Source of the DNA: Anaerolineae bacterium
GTDB taxonomy: Bacteria > Chloroflexota > Anaerolineae > B4-G1 > DUEL01
Length of the DNA stretch: 64,000 nt
Reading direction: 5' to 3'
NCBI GenBank assembly: GCA_041082215.1
Contig: JBDOIF010000093.1
Location: 5,504 to 69,503, forward strand
Shown here: piece after piece, positions 2,811 through 55,519 of the stretch
Position numbering within the stretch: position 1 is the first letter of the stretch
Layout: each line of letters opens with the position of its first letter
Notes under the pieces: model-generated
Database searches by the model: none
The model's input: the letters and a program-made list of their open reading frames with translations, nothing else
Told to the model about the DNA's origin: nothing
Position numbers and translations under genes: made by a program

Positions 2811-2900
2811 CACAGGTTATCCTACTTGCCCTTTCTACCTTTTTGTAGTACACTTAATATATAGAAACCAGAACCCGCCAAGGAGGTCAACGCAGTATCC

Positions 2901-6394: not shown

Positions 6395-6665
6395 CGTAAC
6401 TGCCTACCCCGTGGGTTAATCGCTCCGCCTGGCCCTCACCCCACCCCCGCCCGCCTACAGCGGGCACCTCCGGGGAGGAGGTAGGGAGAGGAGTGAGGGC
6501 CCAAACTATCACCAGGTAGGTAGTTACCAAATAACGGCAATTACCCGCCCGCGTAACACAGGCCGCCAGGCCTGTGTCTCGCAGGCTGACTGGGGGGCCG
6601 ACGCAGGGGCCGACACAGGGGCCGACGCAGGGGCCGACACAGGGGCCGACGCAGTCGGCCCCTAC
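6395..6665. repeat. hairpin-rich GC-rich intergenic block between convergent genes
   Basis: An imperfect long inverted repeat GGCCCTCACCCC...GAGTGAGGGCC spans 6431-6500, and a 9-bp stem ACACAGGCC/GGCCTGTGT lies at 6556-6578. A tandem array follows. Confidence 0.6.
6594..6662. repeat. 12-bp tandem repeat (GGGGCCGACRCA x5) capped by an inverted copy forming a 9-bp hairpin
   Basis: ggggccgacgca ggggccgacaca ggggccgacgca ggggccgacaca ggggccgacgca gtcggcccc. Confidence 0.8.
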
Positions 6666-11825: not shown

Positions 11826-11863
11826 CTTTCCTGCCCTCCACGGTTGATATTGTAGGACAAGCT

Positions 11864-12985
11864 TCAGCCTGCCCTGCAACTGTATTCCGCCCCCTGTTCC
11901 CGCGCCGCCACGTACTTCATCCCTCCCACCTGACGGACCAGCCCTTTCAGCTCCATCATCGCCAGGGTGCTGGTAACCTGGGCAATGGGAAGGCCGACAG
12001 CCAGCCCCAGCTCATCCACGTGGGTCGGCTCCGCCCCCAGATGGGCAAGGAGCGCGGCCTCCGTCTCGCTGACCGGCAGGGTCTCCCGCGCCCGGGCCTG
12101 CTCCGCCGCCATCGCCAGATTCAGCTCCTCCAGAATGTCGGCAGGCTCCAGGACCATCTTTGCCCCGTCCTGGATGAGGCGGTTGGTGCCAGCGGAACCA
12201 GCGGCCAGGATGGAACCGGGCACGGCGAAGACCTCCCTCCCCTGTTCGGCGGCGTAGTCAGCGGTGATCAACGCGCCGCTGTCCCGGCCCGCCTCGGTGA
12301 TCAGCACCCCCAGGCTGAGGCCGCTGATGATCCGGTTGCGGGGGGGGAAGTTGCCCGGCTCCGGGGGAGTGCCCAGCGGGTACTCGCTGATCAGCGCCCC
12401 GTGGGCGGCGATCTGGCGGGCCAGCGCCCGATGTTCCGGCGGATAGACCCGGTCCACCCCGCAGCCCAGCACGGCGAGGGTCCGTCCTCCAGCCTCCAGG
12501 GCCGCCCGATGGGCCACCCCGTCAACACCCCGTGCCAGCCCGCTGACGATGGTGATCCCGCTCTGGGCCAGGGACGTGACCAGCCGATGGGTCACCTCCC
12601 GCCCATAGACGCTGATCCGGCGGGTGCCCACCACCGCTATCGCCCATTCGTCATCCGGCCTCAGCTCCCCACGGATGTAGAGGACCGGCGGCGGGTCAGG
12701 AACCTCCTGCAGAAGCCGGGGGTAACGGGGGTCTTCCCATGTGAGCACCTGCACCCCGGCGGCGGCGACCCGCTCGACCTCCCGTTCCAGGTCCACCGTG
12801 GCCCGGGCCTCCAGCAAATTCCTCAAGGAACGCCGGTCGAGTCCGGCCTGAAGAAGGGCGTCGGCAGGGGCATGCCAGGCCTGTTCCACATCCCCAAAGG
12901 CATCCAGGAGGGCCCGCAGCCGTGCCGGGCCAATGCCCCGGACCAGGTTGAAGCCGATGTAATAGCGCAGTGCGTCCGTTGCCAT
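11864..12985 (-). CDS. dprA: DNA processing protein DprA (Smf)
   Basis: The Rossmann-like DprA core (GLARGVDGVAHRAALEAGG...TLAVLGCGVD) and a C-terminal winged helix are present. The ATG at 12985 (MATDALRYY) is preferred over the long GC-rich ORF extension. Confidence 0.85.
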   Translation of the reverse strand: MATDALRYYIGFNLVRGIGPARLRALLDAFGDVEQAWHAPADALLQAGLDRRSLRNLLEARATVDLEREVERVAAAGVQVLTWEDPRYPRLLQEVPDPPPVLYIRGELRPDDEWAIAVVGTRRISVYGREVTHRLVTSLAQSGITIVSGLARGVDGVAHRAALEAGGRTLAVLGCGVDRVYPPEHRALARQIAAHGALISEYPLGTPPEPGNFPPRNRIISGLSLGVLITEAGRDSGALITADYAAEQGREVFAVPGSILAAGSAGTNRLIQDGAKMVLEPADILEELNLAMAAEQARARETLPVSETEAALLAHLGAEPTHVDELGLAVGLPIAQVTSTLAMMELKGLVRQVGGMKYVAAREQGAEYSCRAG

Positions 12986-15825: not shown

Positions 15826-16971
<1,146 letters not shown>

Positions 16972-17006
16972 TCACCAATGGCACAAATCGGGCGAATGGC
17001 GCAAAT

Positions 17007-17765
17007 TCAGTAGACTTTCAGCAGCAGCAACAGGCCGCTGCACCCGGCCAGAAGGGCAGCCAGCCAGAAGTCGGCGCGGTGGAGCGGCAGCGGCGCGGGC
17101 CGTCCGCCGTTGGGGTCGAAGGCCCGCACTGCCGCCGCGTTCACCACATCATCTCCGTACCGCAGCGTGTTGGCGATGGTCGTCACGAGGAAGTGCTTGA
17201 GGGCCGCTGGGGGGCGCCGGGCACCTCCCCGCAACCAGATCGTCTGCCAGGTCACCCCTGCCATCTCCTCCAGCGCCCCCAGGAGATTCATCGCCAGCGC
17301 GGTGGCGAAGCCCAGCCCGCGCAAACCGAGCCGGTCAAACAGCAGGACGAGATCGGAGAGGGAAAGGGAGCCGATCCCCAACCCGAACGCCAGCGTCAGG
17401 CCGAAGGCCCGTCCGGCCATTTCCCAGCCGGCTGTCAGCCCCTCCCGCGAAAGGGGGAACGGCCCCAGCCAGACATCCGGCTCGCCGATCAGCAGTGGTC
17501 CCACCACCACCGCGGTCAGCACAAAGGCCCAGAACCGGGGGCGAAGGAGCATCCGCAATCCCTGGCGGCTCCAGGCCAGGCCGAAGGCCAGCTCAAAGAG
17601 CGCCAGACCCGGCAGCCATTCCCCTTTGACCAGAATAGCTGTCAGGGCCGCCCAGCCGGTGAACAGGAGATAACCCCACGGGCTCAATGGCCGCCTTCGC
17701 CCACAGCCACCCTGCGCCGCCCCAGCCGCCGCGCCACCGCGCCTCCCAGCGCCCACGCCCCCCAT
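17007..17765 (-). CDS. ecfT: ECF transporter transmembrane (T) component, CbiQ/EcfT family
   Basis: Polytopic membrane protein with the EcfT-type coupling helices region. The start is uncertain; a TTG at about 17687 overlapping the upstream stop is also possible, and the GC-rich N-terminal ORF extension is non-coding. Confidence 0.65.
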   Translation of the reverse strand: MGGVGAGRRGGAAAGAAQGGCGRRRPLSPWGYLLFTGWAALTAILVKGEWLPGLALFELAFGLAWSRQGLRMLLRPRFWAFVLTAVVVGPLLIGEPDVWLGPFPLSREGLTAGWEMAGRAFGLTLAFGLGIGSLSLSDLVLLFDRLGLRGLGFATALAMNLLGALEEMAGVTWQTIWLRGGARRPPAALKHFLVTTIANTLRYGDDVVNAAAVRAFDPNGGRPAPLPLHRADFWLAALLAGCSGLLLLLKVY

Positions 17766-20596: not shown

Positions 20597-20683
20597 TGGT
20601 GCCGAAGGTGGGAGTCGAACCCACACGGCCGTACGGCCACTGCGCCCTGAACGCAGCGCGTCTGCCAATTCCGCCACTTCGGC
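20597..20683 (-). tRNA. tRNA-Leu (anticodon CAG), type II with long variable arm
   Basis: Reverse complement reads GCCGAAGTGGCGGAATTGGCAGACGCGCTGCGTTCAGGGCGCAG...GGTTCGACTCCCACCTTCGGCACCA. The anticodon loop is CTGCG-TTCAGGG-CGCAG and the CCA end is encoded. Confidence 0.9.
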
Positions 20684-22661: not shown

Positions 22662-22759
22662 ACGTCAATGTTCCTCCTGCCAGGTTGGAGGTGTTCCCTC
22701 CCGAAACCAGCGGCATTATAACACGCACCGCCACCGGTAGCAAGTGGACACCCCCTGTG

Positions 22760-22929
22760 GGTGCATTTCAGTTTGGTGGCGAGTTATACCTTGATTTTGC
22801 CCACCTGATGGTGGGTTGATCCCTCACCCCTCCCCCTACCCCCTCCCACCAGGGGGTGGGGTGAGGGCCAGGCAGAGCAATTAGCCTCCAGCGCAGGCAG
22901 TTACCACATCCTCCAAAAAACTGAAATGC
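22760..22929. mobile_element. MITE-like element copy C (about 170 bp) sharing GCATTTCAGTTT terminal inverted repeats with copies A and B, flanked by a CCCCCTGT duplication
   Basis: The 5' end is GGTGCATTTCAGTTTGGTGGCGAG and the 3' end is ...AAAAAACTGAAATGC. Flanks ccccctgtg / ccccctgtt are duplicated. The interior carries the CCCTCACCCCTCCCCCTACCCCCTCCC hairpin repeat. Confidence 0.5.
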
Positions 22930-22991
22930 CCCCCTGTTTTGCGCCCGTCTGAAAACCGGTATAATAAGGCATCCTCAGCGGAGGTGCGGCG

Positions 22992-24504: not shown

Positions 24505-24700
24505 CGACAACTGAATACGGCCTCGACAGAGGTGCCCCAAAGCCCGGATGTGAGGGGCACAAAGGGGGAAGACCGGTTCAAGTCCGGCGCTGTCCCGCAA
24601 CTGTAGGGACACGATTTGTCCGTGTCCAAGCCAGGATACCCGCCTCTGTCGGCGCCCACGCAACCTTCGCGGAAAGGGGGTGGCGCATGAAGGGCAAACA
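24505..24700 (+). promoter_or_regulatory. cobalamin (B12) riboswitch aptamer
   Basis: GGTGCCCC...AAGGGGGAAGACCGGTTCAAGTCCGGCGCTGTCCCGCAACTGTAGGGAC matches the conserved B12-element core (AAGGGAA-GGTGnAAnTCC...GCTGcCCCCGCAACTGTAA). Confidence 0.85.
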
Positions 24701-27569: not shown

Positions 27570-30330
27570 TGTGCGGGCCTGGCTTCTCTGGGCGCTGACG
27601 GGGACGGTGATCGCCTCCTCCACCCGCAACCCCCTCTATCTCTTCCTTCTGGTGCTGACGATCGCGGTGGTGGGCGCGGCCCGGCCATCCGGCTCCAGGC
27701 GGAAGCAGGCCCTATCCTCCCTCCGCTTTACAGCGGCAGCCGTCCCTCTGGCCGCCCTGTTCAACGGCCTGACCGCCCACATCGGCGATACGGTCCTTTT
27801 CCACCTGCCTGCCCGACTCCTGCTGATCGGCGGGCCGGTGACGGCGGAAGCCCTCATCTATGGGGCGATCAGCGGCCTCACACTGACCACAATTCTGAGC
27901 GCTTTCGCCGTCTTCAACCAGGTGACGCCGGTTCACGAACTGGTGGGCCTCACCCCACGCGCCCTGCACGAGACCGGCATCATCCTCTCCATCGCCCTCA
28001 CCTTCATCCCCCAGACGGGCCGCAGCCTGACCCGTATCCGGGAGGCCCAGGCTGTGCGCGGCCACCGCCTGCGGGGACTTCGCGGCTGGCTCCCTATCCT
28101 CATTCCCCTCCTGGTGAGCGGGATGGAACAGTCTATGGGGCTGGCCGAGGCGATGGTCGCCCGCGGGTACGGCTCCGTTTCGGACCGGGACCATTCCACC
28201 CGCACACGGGGGCTGCTGGCCCTGGGACTGCTCGGCGTGCTCGGGGGGTGGCTGGGGATGCTTTTCCTCCCTGCCTGGAAGTATGCTGCGCTGGTCGGGT
28301 TGCTGGCCGGCGGCCTTCTCGTCATCAGCGCACTGTGGCTGGCAGGACGGGCCGCTCCACGGACCGCTTACCGCCCCAGGCGGTGGACCCCTCAGAGCAC
28401 GCTGGTCGTTCTGGGCTGTGGGGCGGCGCTGGCTGCGGTCCTGTTGCCCTGGCCCGGAGCCGAAACGGCAGCCTATACACCCTACCCCAGCCTCACCCTC
28501 CCCCCCTTCGACCCGGCTGTCGGGCTGGGCCTGCTGGGGCTGCTGATGCCAGCACTGGCTGCAGAACGGCGACCTGCACGAGAGGAGGCCCGGGGACCGG
28601 TCCGTTCCTGCGCTCCTGTGACCTCATCCCCTTCTCCTGCGAGGAAAGGGGGAGGGAACGGGGATAAGGTCTCCAGACCCCTATCAGATGCCCCCTTCAT
28701 CCAGTTCAGCCGGTTCACCTATACTTACCCCCAGGCCCTCCACCCTGCCCTCTCCGGGGTGAACCTCCGCATTGAGGAAGGGGAATTCGTGCTGGTGACC
28801 GGCGTCTCCGGTGCAGGCAAGTCCACCCTGCTGCGGGCCCTCAACGGCCTGGTTCCCCACTTCAGCGGGGGGAAGGTGCAGGGCCACGTCTCCGTCGCCG
28901 GGCACAGCCCCGCCGTAGAAGGGCCGCAGGTGCTCAGCCGGGTCGTCGGCTTCGTCTTTCAGGACCCCGAGGCCCAGTTCGTCGTGGATCGGGTGGAGGA
29001 CGAGATCGCCTTTGCGCTGGAGAACCTGGCCCTCCCCCCTGCCCAGATGCGCCTGCGGGTGGAGGAGGTGATGGACCTCCTGGGGCTTACCCCACTGCGG
29101 GATCGGCCGCTGGAGAGCCTCTCCGGAGGGGAGAAGCAACGGGTCGCCATCGGCGCAGCCCTGGCCCTCCGCCCCCGCGTCCTCGTCCTGGACGAACCCA
29201 CCTCCCAGCTCGACCCCTGGTCGGCCGACGAGGTGTTGCAGGCCCTGGTGCGCCTGAACCGGGAGCTGGGCCTCACCGTTATCCTGGCCGAACACCGGCT
29301 GGAGCGAGTCCTCCCCTACGCGGACCGGCTGGTCTACCTGCCGGCCCCCTCGGAGGGGAGGCGGCGGAACGGGCGGGTGCTGAGCGGCCCACCCCGCCAG
29401 GTCCTTCCCCGGATGGAGCTGACGCCGCCGCTGGTCACCCTGGGCAAGGCTCTGGGCTGGGACCCGCTCCCCATTACCCTGGAGGAAGCGCCAGCGACCA
29501 GCGGCGAGCTACGGACAACCAGTAACCAGCAACCAGCAACGAGCTACAGGCAACCGGCAACCCTTCTCCGCATACGGGGGCTTTCTTTCAGCTACGGGGC
29601 CACCCCAGCCCTGCGCGGTGTGGACCTGGAGGTGGGGATGGGAGAGCTGGTGGCATTGATGGGGCGCAACGGCTCCGGCAAGACCACGCTGCTGCGATGC
29701 GTCGTGGGGCTGCTGCACCCTTCAGGGGGAGAGATCGAACTGGAAGGTCGCTCTCTTGTGGGGCTGGACCCGACCCGCATTTGTCGGCAGGTGGGGTATC
29801 TGCCCCAGGAGCCGGACGATCTGCTCTTTGCCGAGACGGTGGCAGAGGAACTGGCCGTCACCCTGCGCAACCACGGCCTTCTCGACCGCCCGCCTATCTC
29901 CCCTGCTACCCTGCTGGAGCGCCTGGGGCTGGGGGGTGTGGCGACGGCCTACCCGCGCGACCTGAGCGTTGGCCAGCGGCAGCGGGTAGCGCTGGGGGCG
30001 GTCACCGTCACCCGGCCCCGGCTCCTGCTCCTGGACGAGCCAACGCGGGGGATGGACTACCTCGCCAAGCAGGGACTGGTCCGCCTGCTCCGGGAATGGC
30101 AGGCGGAGGGGGTCGGTGTCCTGCTGGTGACCCACGATGTGGAGCTGGCAGCTCAGGCAGCGGACCGCGTGGTGGTGCTGGACCAGGGGGAGGTGGTCGC
30201 AGCGGGCCCCCCATCGGAAGTGCTTTCCGGCCCCTCCCTTTTCGCCCCCCAGATCGCCCGGCTCTTTCCGGGCACGGGCTGGCTGACCGTCGAGGAGGCG
30301 CTGGCAGGGCTGGCTAGGGGGAGTGGATGA
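27562..30330 (+). CDS. triple fusion EcfT-EcfA-EcfA' (ECF transporter T component fused to two ABC ATPase domains), 922 aa
   Basis: An N-terminal CbiQ/EcfT membrane domain of about 230 aa is followed by a Pro-rich linker. NBD1 carries [17 protein letters not shown] and VLDEPTS. NBD2 carries [17 protein letters not shown] and LLDEPT. Confidence 0.85.
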
Positions 30331-31405
30331 GCTGACGGTAGAAGGCCACCGTCTCCGCCGCCACCCGGGCCTGGGTGTAGTGAGCCAGTACCCGCTCCCG
30401 CCCCTTCCGGGCCAGCTCTGCCCGCAGCTCCGGCTCGGCCATCAGCCGGGCCAGATGGCCCCGCAGCTCCTCCACGTCCCCCTCCGGAAAGAGCAGGCCG
30501 GCGTCGCCGATCACGTGGGGGATCTCACCGCAGTCCGATCCGACCACCGGCACGCCGCAGGCCATCGCCTCCACCAGCACCCGCCCAAACTGCTCGATCC
30601 AGTTGGGCCGGGAGCGGGAGGGGAGGACCAGGACATCCAGCCGGTGGTAAAAGCGGGTCATCTGGGTGGAGGGAAGCGTGCCCAGGAAAGCGACCCGGTC
30701 CCCAATGCCCAGCCCTTTGGCCAGCTTCTCCAGATCGGCCCGCAGGGGGCCGCTGCCCAGCACCTCCACCCGCACCTCCCTCAGCTCTGCCGCCGCCCGC
30801 AGCAGGAGGTCAGCCCCTTTCTCCTCCACCAGCCGCCCGGCAAAACCGACCACAAAATCCTCCCGCCGCTCCCTCCGGGATGGAGGCGCAAGAAGGTGGG
30901 GGTCCACCCCGAACTGGGGGATAACGACCAGAGGGCCGATGTACCCTTTCTCCCGCCACACCCGGGCCGAGGTGTGGCTGCCGGCGATGGCCCCGTCGGC
31001 ATGGTGGAGGCAATATTTTTCAAAAAAGGAGAAGGGAGGGGGATAGCGACGGAGGAGATTCTGCCAGCTAAACCAGAGGGTGCGGCAACCCACCTGGCGG
31101 GCCAGCACCATCCCGTGAAAGGTCGCCAGATTGTACGGCTCCTCGTCCAGGTGGACCAGGTCAGGCCGGAAGGAGCGGATATGGCGGGCCAGGCGGGGGT
31201 AGAAGTGGAGGTGGAAGTTGCCGTTAAGGGCCATCCACTCGACCGCCAGCTCATACCCCTGCGTATGGGCACGCTCCAGGGGGAGCGTTCCGCGCTCGTC
31301 CCGCCAGTAGGGAGGCACGACCACCCGCAGCTCCAGATCGTCGTGGGAGGCGATCTCCTCCAGCTTGCGCTGGTAGATACCAACGATGCAGGCCTTGGAG
31401 ACCAT
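30314..31405 (-). CDS. glycosyltransferase family 4
   Basis: GT-B fold with EX7E-type motif ([21 protein letters not shown]). The ATG at 31405 (MVSKACIVG) is preferred because the upstream ORF extension runs into MITE copy B. Confidence 0.8.
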
Positions 31406-31432
31406 CAGGATGCGCAAGGGGTGTTCTCCACT

Positions 31433-31624
31433 GGGCGTATTTCCATTTCGGGGCGAGTGGTCCTCTCGCCCGCTGATGGATCGCGAATCCCACGAATGGC
31501 CCAAATACAGCGAACAGGAGGGATCCCTGCCCCATTCGCGGTATTCATTTCCATTCGTGCCATTCGTGTTTCCCCAGGTCCGGCCCCGGTCAGGGACATC
31601 CCGCCCCCAGACTGAAATACACCT
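31433..31624. mobile_element. MITE-like element copy B (about 190 bp) flanked by a 9-bp TTCTCCACT target-site duplication
   Basis: The element runs from GGGCGTATTTCCATTTCGGGGCGAGTGG to GCCCCCAGACTGAAATACACC. The flanks ttctccact / ttctccact are identical. It is about 85% identical to copy A. Confidence 0.65.
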
Positions 31625-31749
31625 TCTCCACTTCAGTCAGGTTTTGCGGATTGCGGATCCCGCGAATAGCCTGAATTCCAGGATGGATGGCGCTTTCATC
31701 CCTTTCGCGTCATTCACCCTCATTCGCGCTATCCGCGTTTTCCGGTTTG

Positions 31750-31778
31750 TTGACATCCCTTTGCATTGTGCTATAATT
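31750..31778 (+). promoter_or_regulatory. consensus sigma70 promoter TTGACA-17-TATAAT
   Basis: ttgacatccctttgcattgtgctataat, about 180 bp upstream of the 31961 gene. Confidence 0.7.
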
Positions 31779-31960
31779 TCGACCCGTTGACAAGTCGGCG
31801 AGGTGGCATGGGGCGATCACGCCGCCAGCGCAGCCCCGACAGGAGAGGTCCTCTCACCGCCGCGCTGGCGGCGGCATCATGGCTGCCGTTGCCCTTGTCT
31901 CTCCTCTTTCAACACGCCGAGGTGGAGGCAAGGTAAGAACAGGAGGTCAGGAGGAAGGTT

Positions 31961-33514
31961 ATGGGAAAAAAGAGCGGGCTATGGACCGTTGCGGTTGCGG
32001 CGGTGCTTGTTCTGGGGACCCTGTCGGGATGGGCAAATGCAGCGCCGTCGCTCCAGGGGACGGGAGAGAACCTGCTGAAGAACCCGGGGTTTGAGGGGCT
32101 CACCTGCAACCCGGCCTCTCCGCCGGGGTGGTGCTACGATAACTGGACCCGCGATACCTACAACGGGATTCCCTATGGGGAGATCTTCACTCCACAGGGA
32201 TGGGTCACGTTCTGGAGCGAGGGGACGAACCCGGCAGATGGGCGGAAGTACGGTCGGCCGGAGTGTAAGGTCATCCCCAAGCAAGCCCCCTTCCTGGGCC
32301 CTCCGGCCCGCATCCGCAGCGGGAACTACGCGATCATGCAGTTCGGTTTCTTCCGCGCCATTGACTCCGGCGTGTACCAGGTCGTCACCGGGCTGACGCC
32401 CCACGCCATCGTCCAGGCCTCCGCCTATGCCCACGCCTGGGCCTGCGGCGACGACGAGCACGGGGCCTACTCCTGCGGCGAGCCGTATCAGATGCTCTTC
32501 CGCGTCGGCATAGACCCCAACGGCGGCACCAATCCCTGGAGCCCGACCGTCATCTGGGCCAGCGGCTACTCGTACGACGAGTACCGCCTCATCGGCCCGG
32601 TGCAGGCCGAGGTGGGCGATGCTGGCACGGTTACCGTTTTTCTGCGGGCAACGGCCAAGTGGCCCCTGAAGCACAACGATGTCTACTGGGACGATGCCTC
32701 CCTGATCTACGTCACCCCGCCGGCCACACCGACCAACACCCCGCTGCCCCCGCCCCCCACGGCAACGCCCGGCCCCTCTCCCACTCCGCTGCCCACCCCC
32801 ACCCCCCGGCCCGATGGCGCCATCGTCCACATCGTCCAGCCGGGCGACACGCTCTTCGGCATCGCTCTCCAGTACGGCGTGCCGATGGAGCAGATTCAGC
32901 AGTTGAATGCCGGCTCCATCGGCCCCAACAATCTGATCCAGGTGGGTCAGGAGCTGGTCATCGCCATACCCTCCGCCACCCCCACCCCGGTTCCGCCCCC
33001 CACTCAGGTGGCAGAGGTCACCGCCACTCCTGCGCCCGCCGAGGTAGGGGCGGTCTGTGTGCTGGCCTACCATGACCGAAACGGGGATACCTTCCGGCAG
33101 CCAGACACAGAAGAGCCATTGCCCAACGCCGTCTTCTCCCTGGGCGATGCGAGCGGCCTTCTGGGGCAATACACCACCGACGGCCTGAGCGAGCCCTACT
33201 GCTTCACCGGGCTGGCCCCGGGCACCTACCGGGTGGCCATGCAGCCGCCAGCGGGCTATGTGGCCAGCGGGCCTTCCGACATGGCGCTCGCAATGGGCAC
33301 AGGGGGAGCGCTGGAAATAGCTATGGGGGCCAGGCGAGGCGAAGCACCGGCCACACCCGAAGGGTCGGAAGTGGTCCAGCCGGAACCCACAGAGGAGGCC
33401 ACCTCGGGCCTGCCGCTGGTGCTCCGCCGGGCGGCCGGCGTCAGCGGCATCCTGCTTCTGGGGCTGGCACTGGCAGTGGCCGTCCTCTTCGTCCTCTCCC
33501 GCCTGCGACGGTAG
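31961..33514 (+). CDS. secreted multidomain protein: carbohydrate-binding-like N-terminal domain, Pro/Thr linkers, LysM domain, SdrD-B/Cna-B-like domain, C-terminal TM anchor
   Basis: Signal peptide; NLLKNPGFE... beta-sandwich region; LysM (IVHIVQPGDTLFGIALQYGVPMEQIQQLN); a VCVLAYHDRNGDTFRQPD...GTYRV region; hydrophobic C-terminus followed by RLRR. Confidence 0.75.
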   Translation: MGKKSGLWTVAVAAVLVLGTLSGWANAAPSLQGTGENLLKNPGFEGLTCNPASPPGWCYDNWTRDTYNGIPYGEIFTPQGWVTFWSEGTNPADGRKYGRPECKVIPKQAPFLGPPARIRSGNYAIMQFGFFRAIDSGVYQVVTGLTPHAIVQASAYAHAWACGDDEHGAYSCGEPYQMLFRVGIDPNGGTNPWSPTVIWASGYSYDEYRLIGPVQAEVGDAGTVTVFLRATAKWPLKHNDVYWDDASLIYVTPPATPTNTPLPPPPTATPGPSPTPLPTPTPRPDGAIVHIVQPGDTLFGIALQYGVPMEQIQQLNAGSIGPNNLIQVGQELVIAIPSATPTPVPPPTQVAEVTATPAPAEVGAVCVLAYHDRNGDTFRQPDTEEPLPNAVFSLGDASGLLGQYTTDGLSEPYCFTGLAPGTYRVAMQPPAGYVASGPSDMALAMGTGGALEIAMGARRGEAPATPEGSEVVQPEPTEEATSGLPLVLRRAAGVSGILLLGLALAVAVLFVLSRLRR

Positions 33515-33596: not shown

Positions 33597-33794
33597 CTAC
33601 TCCTCTTCTTCCCACTCCTCTTCCCAGTCTTCCTCCCATTCCTCCTCGTAGTCAACCCAGTCCAGCTCAACGGGGTCCAGTTCGATCACCTCCAGCTCGG
33701 CTTCGCAGTAGGGGCAGACCACCCTCTGGCCGATTCTGGGGCGCCCGGACAACTTGATGTCGTCCCCACAGGACGGGCAAATCGCCACAGGCAT
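33597..33794 (-). CDS. LysW-like zinc-ribbon small protein with extended W/E-rich acidic tail (paralog 1)
   Basis: MPVAICPSCGDDIKLSGRPRIGQRVVCPYCEAELEVIELDPVELDWVDYEEEWEEDWEEEWEEEE shares the CPxCG...VVCxxCxAELEV..LDP architecture of LysW/amino-group carrier proteins. Confidence 0.75.
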   Translation of the reverse strand: MPVAICPSCGDDIKLSGRPRIGQRVVCPYCEAELEVIELDPVELDWVDYEEEWEEDWEEEWEEEE

Positions 33795-33934
33795 ATCCTA
33801 CCTCCTAACGGCTAAGATGGCTCTCTGTTGCAGGCGCGGTAGATTATAGGCAAAAGCTGTGAAAAAGGACGTAGAAGGGGCGTTCTAAAGACATTTCAGG
33901 GGACGGGGGAACGTGAAATTCCTGCCACAGTCGT

Positions 33935-34990: not shown

Positions 34991-35227
34991 CTAGGCTTCT
35001 TCCCAGTCTTCCTCGTCCCAGTCTTCTTCGTCTTCCCAGTCCTCCTCCTCCCACTCTTCTTCTTCTTCCCAATCCTCCTCGTAATCCACCCAGTCCAGCT
35101 CCAGCGGCTCCAGATCAATGACCTCAAGATCGGCATCACAGTGCGGACATCTCACGCGCTGTCCGAGTGTGGGACGGCCGGAGAGCTTGATATCCTCCCC
35201 ACACGAAGGGCAGATAGCTATAGCCAT
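34991..35227 (-). CDS. LysW-like zinc-ribbon small protein with extended W/E/D-rich acidic tail (paralog 2)
   Basis: MAIAICPSCGEDIKLSGRPTLGQRVRCPHCDADLEVIDLEPLELDWVDYEEDWEEEEEWEEEDWEDEEDWDEEDWEEA. The true gene is the C-terminal 78 aa of the 264-aa ORF-track entry. Confidence 0.75.
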   Translation of the reverse strand: MAIAICPSCGEDIKLSGRPTLGQRVRCPHCDADLEVIDLEPLELDWVDYEEDWEEEEEWEEEDWEDEEDWDEEDWEEA

Positions 35228-35397
35228 GTCCACCTCCCTGAAATTCTGAAAAACCCTGTATTGCTTGTTGGACTTCCCCTTTGCGACGGCAATTATAGGG
35301 ATGTGCTGTGCAAACTGACGTGGAGAAAATGTGTCAAGGATGTCCCAGAGGTAGCTTCTGTGTGCAATTCCTGCGACTCCAACCACCGGCATCCTGC

Positions 35398-39128: not shown

Positions 39129-39499
39129 TGTCTATCCTCCAGGAGCAGGACAGGCTGAAGCTTGTCCTACAAGGGACGAGGCCGTGGACCCAAGCCCACG
39201 GCCTCGAGAAGACGGAGGGATAAACTTAGAGAAACGAAAAGGCCGTGGGTTTTGCAGGCGCCCACGGCCTTGATGACTTTATGTCAACCGCCGCCAGGCG
39301 CACTGCGACAGGGCAAAACCCGAGGACCGCCCTCATTGCGGACCCGGATCGCGCCGCTCAGCTTGGACATCGCAGTGCGCATCTTCGACCTCCTCCAGGA
39401 TTCAACACTTATTGTACTCCAGAATCAGGAATTGTCAAGCAGGGAAGCGGAAGGTATAATCGGAGAGATGGCCACAGACTCTCAGGAAGGATAGGCGGT

Positions 39500-52129: not shown

Positions 52130-52210
52130 CGAGCGACGGATGACGAGTGGCGTCAAACGTCAAACGTCAGGCGTCAGGCGGATGACGAATGACGAATAAC
52201 GAATGACGGA
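52118..52210. repeat. heptad repeat array: GATGACGA/TGACGAA copies flanking CGTCAAA-CGTCAAA-CGTCAGG-CGTCAGG (partly inverted symmetry)
   Basis: Read directly from the sequence. It is related to the array at 54777..54858. Confidence 0.7.
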
Positions 52211-54381: not shown

Positions 54382-54772
54382 CTGGTTGTTGCTGGTGTTT
54401 GTGGGCGGGCTGGCGGCACTCTGGTTGCTCCTGCACACGCCAGGCACGGAGCTTGCTTCAACGGCAGAGTTCGACCGGCGGGTCTCCGTCGGCCGGCCGG
54501 TGGTGGTCGAGTTCTACTCCAACACCTGAAGCGGATGCCTTCTGGCAAAGCCTGTCGTGGACAGGCTGGAAAGGGAGCTGGAGGGGCGTGCAGAGGTGGT
54601 GCGGGTGGATGCGATGACGCAGGTGGGAGCCGAGCTGGCCCGACGATACGGCGTGCGCGGCGTGCCCACCCTGCTGGTCTTCGACGGGGCTGGACAGGTG
54701 GTCTACAGCGGGGTCGGTCTGCCAGACAGGCAAGCGATTACGACAGCGGTGGATCGGGTTTCCGGGCAGTAA
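54356..54772 (+). CDS. membrane-anchored thioredoxin-fold protein with in-frame TGA at the CxxC position (candidate selenoprotein, UxxC = T-U-S-G-C)
   Basis: AGGAGG RBS. An N-terminal TM helix is followed by VVVEFYSNT-TGA-SGCLLAKPVVD...YGVRGVPTLLVFDGAGQVV. The TGA lies at 54527-54529, and the two ORF-track pieces (54317..54529 and 54557..54772) are in the same frame with no other stop between them. Confidence 0.55.
54549..54567 (+). promoter_or_regulatory. candidate bacterial SECIS hairpin AGCCTGTC-gtg-GACAGGCT, 22 nt downstream of the in-frame UGA
   Basis: Perfect 8-bp stem seen directly in the sequence; the apical region contains GU. Confidence 0.4.
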
Positions 54773-54776
54773 GATC

Positions 54777-54858
54777 GGGCGTCAGGCGTCAAACGTCAGG
54801 CGTCAAACGTCAGGCGTCAAACGTCAGGCGTCAAACGTCAGGCGTCAGGCGTCAGACG
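54777..54858. repeat. heptad tandem array (CGTCAGG/CGTCAAA alternating, about 11 copies)
   Basis: ggcgtcaggcgtcaaacgtcaggcgtcaaacgtcaggcgtcaaacgtcaggcgtcaaacgtcaggcgtcaggcgtcagacg. Confidence 0.85.
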
Positions 54859-54862
54859 TTGC

Positions 54863-55519
54863 CTACCAGGCCTGCCCCCGACCGGTCAGGACCCGCACCA
54901 GCAACCCCACCGCCAGTCCGCTGACAAACCCGCCGATGTGGGCAAACCAGGCCACTCCGCCCGTCGCCACGCTCATTGTGCCCAGACTGAGGAAGCCGTT
55001 GAAGAGCTGAAGGACGAACCAGAAGCCCAGGACGATGAGGGACGGCACACGGGCGATGCGCATCATAAAGTAGCCCGGCACCAGCACCCGCACCGGCGCG
55101 GCCGGGAAGAGGACCATATAGACGGCCAGGACCCCGGCGATGGCCCCGCTGGCACCGACACCCGGCACGGTGGAAGAAGGAGCGATGATCACCTGGGCCA
55201 CCCCTGCCGCGATCCCCGCTGCCAGGTAGAACAGCGTGTATCCCACCCGCCCCAGCGCATCCTCCACGTTGTCGCCGAAGATCCAGAGGTAGAGCATATT
55301 GCCAATCAGGTGAGCCCAACCCCCGTGGAGGAACATCGAGGTGAAAAGCGTGACCGCGGCCAGGGGATGGTCCATCGGGTCGGTGATATAGGCCGGGACC
55401 GCCCCCCAGCGCATAAAAAACCGGTCCACCCGCGAGCCCAGCATCAGCTCATACAGAAAGACCAGGACGTTGACCCCGATCAACCCCCAGGTGACCACCG
55501 GCACCCGACGACTGGGCAT
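54863..55519 (-). CDS. rhomboid family intramembrane serine protease
   Basis: GASGAIAGV catalytic Ser motif and a downstream His in TM6. The ATG at 55519 (MPSRRVPVVTW) is preferred over the GC-rich upstream extension. Confidence 0.85.
   Translation of the reverse strand: MPSRRVPVVTWGLIGVNVLVFLYELMLGSRVDRFFMRWGAVPAYITDPMDHPLAAVTLFTSMFLHGGWAHLIGNMLYLWIFGDNVEDALGRVGYTLFYLAAGIAAGVAQVIIAPSSTVPGVGASGAIAGVLAVYMVLFPAAPVRVLVPGYFMMRIARVPSLIVLGFWFVLQLFNGFLSLGTMSVATGGVAWFAHIGGFVSGLAVGLLVRVLTGRGQAW

Follow-up and report, generated by a model that had tools for sequence, protein, structure and literature searches.

ISKra4-family transposases are prokaryotic Mutator-like DDE enzymes (p-MULT4), and classical bacterial miniature inverted-repeat transposable elements (MITEs) are intergenic, often co-transcribed with their neighbours and mobilised in trans by related insertion sequences (IS). 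Correia/NEMIS of Neisseria, RUP of Streptococcus pneumoniae and Nezha of cyanobacteria measure about 100–300 bp and share terminal inverted repeats, duplications and hairpin-forming transcripts; we know of no classical bacterial MITE of this kind (Correia/NEMIS, RUP, Nezha) that inherits promoter-upstream targeting. For prokaryotic Mutator-like elements including the ISKra4 group, terminal repeats of 18–39 bp with a conserved terminal cytosine, p-MULT duplications of 8 or 9 bp and probable circular intermediates have been reported (PMC3942029). The ISKra4 group integrates 15–17 bp upstream of the sigmaA −35 box, on either side if the repeats are near-symmetric (PMC3942029), and Chloroflexi are already among its listed hosts (Guerillot et al. 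2014, PMC3942029). The term MITE occurs 0 times in that paper (PMC3942029), and no description of ISKra4-derived MITEs was found in the literature searched. TnGBS conjugative elements and ISLre2 (p-MULT3) have the same superfamily chemistry as ISKra4 and likewise insert about 16 bp upstream of promoters, but they use another transposase family, reside mainly in Firmicutes hosts and show one insertion orientation. REP/BIME sequences are intergenic palindromes as well; REPs, however, are only 20–40 bp long, are associated with RAYT (IS200/IS605-like) proteins and show no target-site duplication.

In this study, we analysed a window of 64,000 nt, the whole stretch of DNA under consideration, and focused on a palindromic element at 31433–31624 on the plus strand, hereafter copy B. 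This element is very probably a non-autonomous ISKra4-family (p-MULT4) MITE, in which terminal inverted repeats of about 25 bp enclose a non-coding palindromic interior of 140 nt. The first-pass annotation had already called it a MITE, which was upheld: it is small, non-coding, bounded by terminal inverted repeats and flanked by a duplication, it has a second copy with a different duplication, its orthologous loci are empty, and it shares its ends with IS elements. Copy B resembles the ISKra4 group in its repeats of about 22–25 bp with terminal C/G, which are near-identical to those of NF033572-encoding elements, and in its 8–9-bp duplication, and the wider family described below likewise inserts at 15–17 nt from sigmaA −35 boxes, on their upstream side, with either end of the element facing the promoter if the repeats are near-symmetric. 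Unlike that group, it carries no transposase gene, measures 192 bp instead of 1.4–1.5 kb, has an unrelated interior and lies beside no recognisable promoter at the usual distance. Compared with classical bacterial MITEs, it differs in parent IS family, duplication length and target rule, and it is set apart from REPs by 8–9-bp duplications and DDE-type terminal repeats. The MITE call is now extended by the ISKra4 assignment; the element class and the mechanism are well known, and the mechanism is the expected one.

Read along the plus strand, copy B has the direction of the parent IS transposase gene, with its left end coming first. On the left, ...ggtg TTCTCCACT adjoins GGGCGTATTTCC, and on the right CTGAAATACACC adjoins TTCTCCACT tcag, so that both copies of TTCTCCACT abut the element directly. 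The left terminal inverted repeat (31433–31457, plus strand) is GGGCGTATTTCCATTTCGGGGCGAG and aligns with the ends GGGTGCATTTCAGTTTGGGGGC of three IS elements from other genomes (loci L031, L073 and L090), while the right one (31600–31624, minus strand) has the reverse complement AGGTGTATTTCAGTCTGGGGGCGGG and reads CCCCCAGACTGA. The two repeats are complementary at 18 of the 25 outermost positions, and each end has 1–4 mismatches to the 20-nt family consensus. Copy B as a whole is an imperfect palindrome: against the reverse complement of either itself or copy A, identity is 64–65% (E 1e-11 to 5e-13), with values of 64–67% in the self-comparison. It is non-coding, being crossed by spurious ORFs only.

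The 9-bp duplication claimed previously is indeed perfect at both sides, with TTCTCCACT at 31424–31432 and 31624–31632, although its true length may be 8 bp. It is the single 9-mer in the whole window that is repeated at a spacing of 200 nt; the background is a mean of 1.4 such 9-mers per 64 kb per spacing (spacings 150–259), and the chance of one at a fixed boundary is about 2e-5. Copy B begins on the left with G, complementary to the conserved C, and finishes on the right with T, a variant that copy A has too. Across 147 junctions from other genomes, the base just outside ...CACC is C in 89%, whereas it is T in both A and B. Since this base belongs to the element family-wide, the ninth matching T is probably coincidental, the duplication being TCTCCACT (31425–31432 on the left, 8 bp) and the element 31433–31624, 192 bp counting the terminal T. 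A 9-bp duplication around a 191-bp element (31433–31623) is possible as well, the family using both lengths. If the terminal T is element, A and B both have perfect 8-mer duplications; if it is target, B has a perfect 9-mer and A a match of 8/9.

Copy A lies at 2619–2810 on the plus strand, flanked by CACAGGTT at 2611–2618 and 2811–2818. A repeat search pairing 31432–31624 with 2618–2810 confirmed the same orientation noted in the first-pass annotation, but identity was measured at 92% in place of the roughly 85% given there; the flanking repeats form the exact limits of the similarity. The repeat of copy A differs from that of copy B and matches at 8/8 positions, or 8/9 if taken as 9 bp. The right end of copy A, CCCCCAAACTGA, preserves what is left of the last transposase codons, P-P-N-stop, its counterpart in B being CCCCCAGACTGA, and it is located 15–16 nt upstream of the recA −35 box (TTGCCC, 2826–2831; 17-nt spacer; TACACT, 2849–2854). 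The recA promoter is kept in L118–L120, and L118 and L119 are without the element there. As a side observation, the recA promoter region (window 2826–2870) was seen to be kept across four Anaerolineae lineages as TTGCCY-N17-TACACT together with the block GTAGTACACTTAATA, and this conserved upstream block might include an SOS operator. Element C (22759–22933, minus strand) has terminal repeats as in A and B and a different interior; its 22760 end is 16 nt upstream of TTGCTA (22743–22738), followed by a 17-nt spacer and TATAAT (22720–22715), and its duplication is ambiguous, since CCCCCTGT overlaps the terminal C run. The consensus of the A, B and C ends is G-GGTGYATTTCAGTTTGGGGG, the full 20-mer having 4 matches in the window against 0.00 expected, and the 12-nt end core GYATTTCARTTT is found 6 times where 0.09 would be expected. 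The A/B subfamily is thus present in two copies within 64 kb, plus one element (C) with only the ends in common.

Outside the window, the 5' end of copies A and B gave 0 exact matches in 185,579 species genomes, among which the source genome is therefore not included, and no match to the element was found in a plasmid collection. One scan of JGI metagenomes with interior 20–22-mers of A and B returned 0 matches; the single match of a second such scan was judged to be due to chance, as it stood in unrelated context and without terminal repeats. Logan contigs from other samples that encode an identical RecA break off within copy A, 29 nt before it ends and at one and the same base in independent assemblies, which is expected of a multi-copy repeat. 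An identical RecA is carried by SRR28530377 and SRR27730043. The 8% divergence between A and B implies that transposition was not recent, and, together with the absence of the subfamily from the other genomes and JGI metagenomes scanned, it points to an old, lineage-restricted amplification.

In the species-genome collection, a degenerate version of the end pattern matched 108 or more genome stretches; by our own estimate, about 35 matches over all taxa would arise by chance. Among the matches listed, 76/80 belong to Chloroflexota (Anaerolineae, Caldilineaceae, Ardenticatenaceae, Amarolinea, Roseilinea), and many of the matches fall at contig ends, as expected of repeats. Inverted-paired ends bound 43 elements of 98–1523 bp in other loci, or 46 with the three in the window. 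Most of these are 98–450 bp long, while three of about 1.5 kb (L031, L073, L090), whose ends match those of A and B, contain a transposase gene; these three come from other MAGs of Chloroflexota, where ISKra4-family insertion sequences are common. In L031 the ORF is intact, and its 463-aa product reaches 263.5 bits with the NCBIfam model NF033572, ‘ISKra4 family transposase’ (cut-off 205), and the L073 and L090 transposases give partial matches to the same model; assignment of the L031 protein to ISLre2 (NF033529) was rejected at 86 bits versus a cut-off of 200, as was ISH6, with a score well below cut-off. The transposase C-terminus ...PPN-stop falls inside the right terminal repeat (CCCCCAAACTGA), and several contigs end in exactly this C-terminus plus terminal repeat. 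Outside GGTG...CACC, the terminal base is G on the left in 40/46 elements and C on the right in 43/46, and exact flanking repeats indicate a duplication of 8 bp in 11 and of 9 bp in 15 of the 46 elements, the full-length L073 having a perfect 9-bp duplication. These ends and duplication lengths agree with the published p-MULT features (PMC3942029). No transposase was detected in the 64-kb window by tblastn with the parent transposase, and the A/B interior showed no similarity to the full-length IS elements found or to any other locus retrieved.

As a side observation on the full-length elements, the transposase of three diverged ISKra4-type copies (L090, L073 and L087) is divided between two ORFs, and in each copy the break falls at the same T(4-6)C(4-6) homopolymer, e.g. 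GGTCTTTTTCCCCCT (L090:4990–5010, L073:690–705, L087:555–570), with the downstream ORF in the +1 frame, whereas L031 has a single fused ORF. The split could reflect programmed frameshifting, transcriptional slippage or recurrent homopolymer errors; programmed frameshifting or transcriptional slippage is reportedly found in the ISMich2 group.

Target choice of the family was assessed on 147 non-redundant element–genome junctions in other genomes with an explicit rule for sigma70-like promoters. The junction profile has a T-T-G signal at positions 17–20 and an A/T-rich patch at 40–46. A promoter starts at offset 16 in 23 junctions and at offset 17 in 22 (about 45–46/147 together), while every other offset from 0 to 35 accounts for at most 2 junctions. 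The offset follows duplication length, being 17 in 9/9 cases of a 9-bp duplication with a promoter found and mostly 16 for 8-bp duplications, and the family offsets agree with the ISKra4-group specificity described in PMC3942029. In 24/34 paired MITEs a promoter is found at such an offset on at least one side. The remaining ~30% are without one, and promoter targeting should therefore be regarded as a tendency and not as a strict criterion; it nevertheless explains the presence of copies at divergent promoter regions. Copies A, at the recA promoter, and C fit the rule with an offset of 16. At copy B, by contrast, no recognisable promoter was found at the canonical offset on either flank. What does stand in canonical geometry to B is a hexamer that includes the GT4 start codon, TTGCGC (terminal base, 8-bp duplication, 7 nt, TTG); it has no −10 box, and this geometry is possibly coincidental. 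A bare TTG at the canonical offset occurs in 9/101 promoterless junctions versus about 5 expected, and because this enrichment is weak, we make no claim that B was targeted to TTGCGC.

The gene next to copy B encodes an intact GT4 glycosyltransferase of 367 aa (30314–31417, minus strand; Pfam Glyco_transf_4 / Glycos_transf_1) with a TTG start at 31417. Its protein is identical to the database protein P0001 over 367 aa, the next relatives having at most 80% identity. Homologues carry the names Anaerolineae, Thermoflexales or Thermoflexia, from which a Thermoflexales-like member of the class Anaerolineae is deduced as the source. Placement of the element in the 5' leader of this gene, as proposed in the first-pass annotation, proved correct; the real start is at 31417, and the probable promoter lies on the far side of the element. 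The same holds for the view that the N-terminus of the annotated ORF is MITE-derived: the 396-aa GT4 ORF starts inside copy B (LGHSWDSRSISGREDHSPRN...), and a spurious ORF at copy A contains this peptide too. On the opposite strand, the strong consensus promoter noted before is real, conserved and matches at 12/12 positions, except that it ends at 31777 and not at 31778; this sigma70-type promoter of the divergent LysM-domain gene (31961–33514) spans 31750–31777 on the plus strand, with TTGACA, a 16-nt spacer, TATAAT and a TG extension, and its block ATTATAGCACAATGCAAAGGCTTGTCAA is kept in L003, L004, L114 and L115. Back to back with it lies a probable GT4 promoter at 31765–31793 on the minus strand (TTGTCA, 17-nt spacer, CACAAT, 9/12). 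TTGCCA...CACAAT is kept in four orthologues, and TTGYCA-17-nt-CACAAT is the probable GT4 promoter.

In the four orthologous loci from related Anaerolineae (L003, L004, L114, L115), the GT4 gene adjoins the conserved block GACTTGCCAACG...AATTATAGCACAATGCAAAGGCTTGTCAA at 25–50 nt from its start, with a LysM-domain gene beside it also in L004. Promoter and ribosome-binding site are kept there, with GGAGG 9–10 nt before the TTG start codon, and there is no MITE. Related genomes with the same sequence at a conserved locus but without a duplication would have spoken against mobility, and the opposite was found, in relatives whose GT4 identity is at most 80% and which are not of the same species; exact-protein look-ups for the GT4 and LysM proteins gave no same-species contig on record with an empty site. 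Compared with these relatives, the window has two insertions between promoter and Shine-Dalgarno sequence, namely the MITE and a palindromic segment at 31644–31743, which we call ‘adj’. They separate the GT4 gene from its conserved promoter by about 320 nt and extend the leader from about 40–65 nt to about 350 nt, now with a strong hairpin. On the GT4 strand the duplicated target is AGTGGAGAA and contains the Shine-Dalgarno sequence GGAG (31429–31426). One copy thus sits beside the gene, 9 nt from the TTG start, and the GT4 gene stays intact because the duplication kept it there, while the copy beyond the element forms an orphan second ribosome-binding site. As a separate observation, the orthologous leader of L114 holds another GC-rich insert of about 170 nt (L114:1030–1195) between conserved promoter and ribosome-binding site, and the short GT4 leader seems to be a recurrent insertion site.

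These features bear on the question whether copy B, while a genuine MITE, has been domesticated, supplying the GT4 gene with, for example, a promoter that reads outward or a hairpin acting in processing or stability, instead of being a neutral passenger. The gene is intact though about 320 nt from its conserved promoter, and the duplication preserved its ribosome-binding site, both of which would fit such a role. However, we looked for a promoter reading out of copy B towards GT4 and detected none. Read-through from the conserved promoter is therefore the default assumption; it would suffice for expression, and GT4 is inferred to be transcribed in this way across the element. A missing canonical promoter next to the element is, moreover, shared by about 30% of the family. 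We consequently regard domestication as improbable.

A host cis-regulatory RNA or REP/BIME-like structural repeat upstream of genes, retained as a hairpin leader, attenuator or stabiliser and not mobilised by a transposase, could account for the predicted fold of the copy B RNA (−91.5 kcal/mol, z = −3.45), for a weak terminator-like stem on the GT4 sense strand at 31532–31512, for the position of both A and B just upstream of gene starts and for a copy of the core without terminal repeats in the same GT4 leader. Yet the element is missing from four orthologous GT4 leaders and two recA upstream regions, Rfam returned no match at gathering thresholds nor at E ≤ 1, the two downstream genes are unrelated, and both the flanking duplications and the ends common to transposase-encoding elements argue for transposition, so that this explanation is very hard to maintain. 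It is equally far-fetched that each copy is a full-length ISKra4 remnant whose interior was deleted in place and whose short form never transposed, even though full-length relatives with the same ends exist and copy A retains the transposase P-P-N-stop codons in its right end: A and B have a common 140-nt non-transposase interior without similarity to IS elements, at 92% identity, with identical boundaries, at unlinked sites and with different duplications, a pair which independent deletions would not yield, and one deletion whose short product then transposed amounts to the MITE model itself.

With copy B taken as a non-autonomous ISKra4-family MITE, the following course of events can be proposed. 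A transposase encoded elsewhere, as none resides in the 64-kb window, would bind both ends and mobilise the element in trans. The element would be excised or copied, probably via a circular intermediate as described for the superfamily, and would integrate with a staggered cut of 8–9 bp, whose repair would yield the flanking duplication. As the family usually integrates about 15–16 nt upstream of a sigmaA −35 box, copies pile up in promoter regions, and copy B landed between the conserved bidirectional GT4/LysM promoter and the GT4 Shine-Dalgarno sequence.

The second insertion in the GT4 leader, ‘adj’ (31644–31743, plus strand), is a CGCGAAT-rich palindrome of about 100 nt which is homologous to the MITE core in the same orientation. 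It aligns with positions 45–139 of B with a local score of 37, versus a shuffle mean of 16 and 0/500 shuffles as high; an alignment to the cores of A and B was obtained by nhmmer as well, with an E-value that is not independent, ‘adj’ being among the three profile-building sequences. It is without ISKra4-type terminal repeats and is not present in L003, L004, L114 or L115. Against L004 it appears as a clean insertion at gtcaggtttt^ccggtttgTTGACA, 11 nt past the right-hand duplication of B and 8–13 nt upstream of the LysM −35 box. GTTTT is found on both sides, where the right-hand one may be part of the core. The idea that removal of ‘adj’ restores the canonical distance between B and the LysM promoter was rejected, as this distance becomes 30 nt and not 16. 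No further copies of the core were found in the window or in any locus retrieved. One could speculate, and we consider this rather unlikely, that the A/B element is a chimera of ISKra4-type end arms around a separately insertable CGCGAAT-rich palindromic core. In such a chimera, the core may represent another small mobile element that nested into the MITE, or the MITE subfamily may have arisen by capture of promoter-proximal DNA between two ISKra4 ends.

For annotation of this Anaerolineae-class MAG, an ISKra4-family MITE at this site explains the false N-terminal extension of the GT4 protein, the spurious ORF at copy A and the breaks in short-read contigs. More broadly, it means that ISKra4-type elements gave rise to many MITE subfamilies across Chloroflexota which retain insertion 15–16 nt upstream of sigmaA promoters. 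In an uncultured phylum, such MITEs thus mark real promoters at no cost, and time and again they alter the regulatory DNA upstream of genes.

Several further repeats and RNA features were observed in the window. A different MITE-like element at 6396–6527, just after the RNase Y stop, has terminal repeats GTAACTGCCTACC / GGTAGGTAGTTAC and is flanked by CAAATAAC, a perfect repeat of 8 bp; the interior is G/C-rich and similar to that of element C (22852–22904) and the segment 24404–24433, and the element's type of end also occurs in L120, where it is inserted in the relative's recA leader, and in L001 and L080. The combination in element C of ISKra4-type ends with an interior like that of the 6396–6527 element suggests nested or chimeric MITEs. 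Just downstream of the latter, at 6584–6654, the tandem 12-nt repeat GGGGCCGACRCA is present in about six copies, and an intergenic array of a CnAATGGC motif at 16960–17010 shows weak similarity to the motif of the MITE core (nhmmer E ~0.1). Two tandem arrays of 7-nt units (CGTCAGG / CGTCAAA) occupy 52130–52195 and 54766–54873, 2.6 kb apart, and a common 33-nt motif, TTGTAGGACAAGCTTCAGCCTGYCCTGC, is found with 91% identity at 11850–11882 (plus strand) and 39140–39172 (minus strand), both intergenic. Common TCTTCCCAGTC-type repeats at 33604–33798 and 34995–35231 are 74% identical over 192 nt and, on the minus strand, seem to correspond to acidic repeat segments rich in Trp in two ORFs that are neighbours. 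Finally, a tRNA-Leu(CAG) gene lies at 20597–20683 on the minus strand, and a cobalamin riboswitch (RF00174, 75.8 bits) at 24513–24661 on the plus strand.
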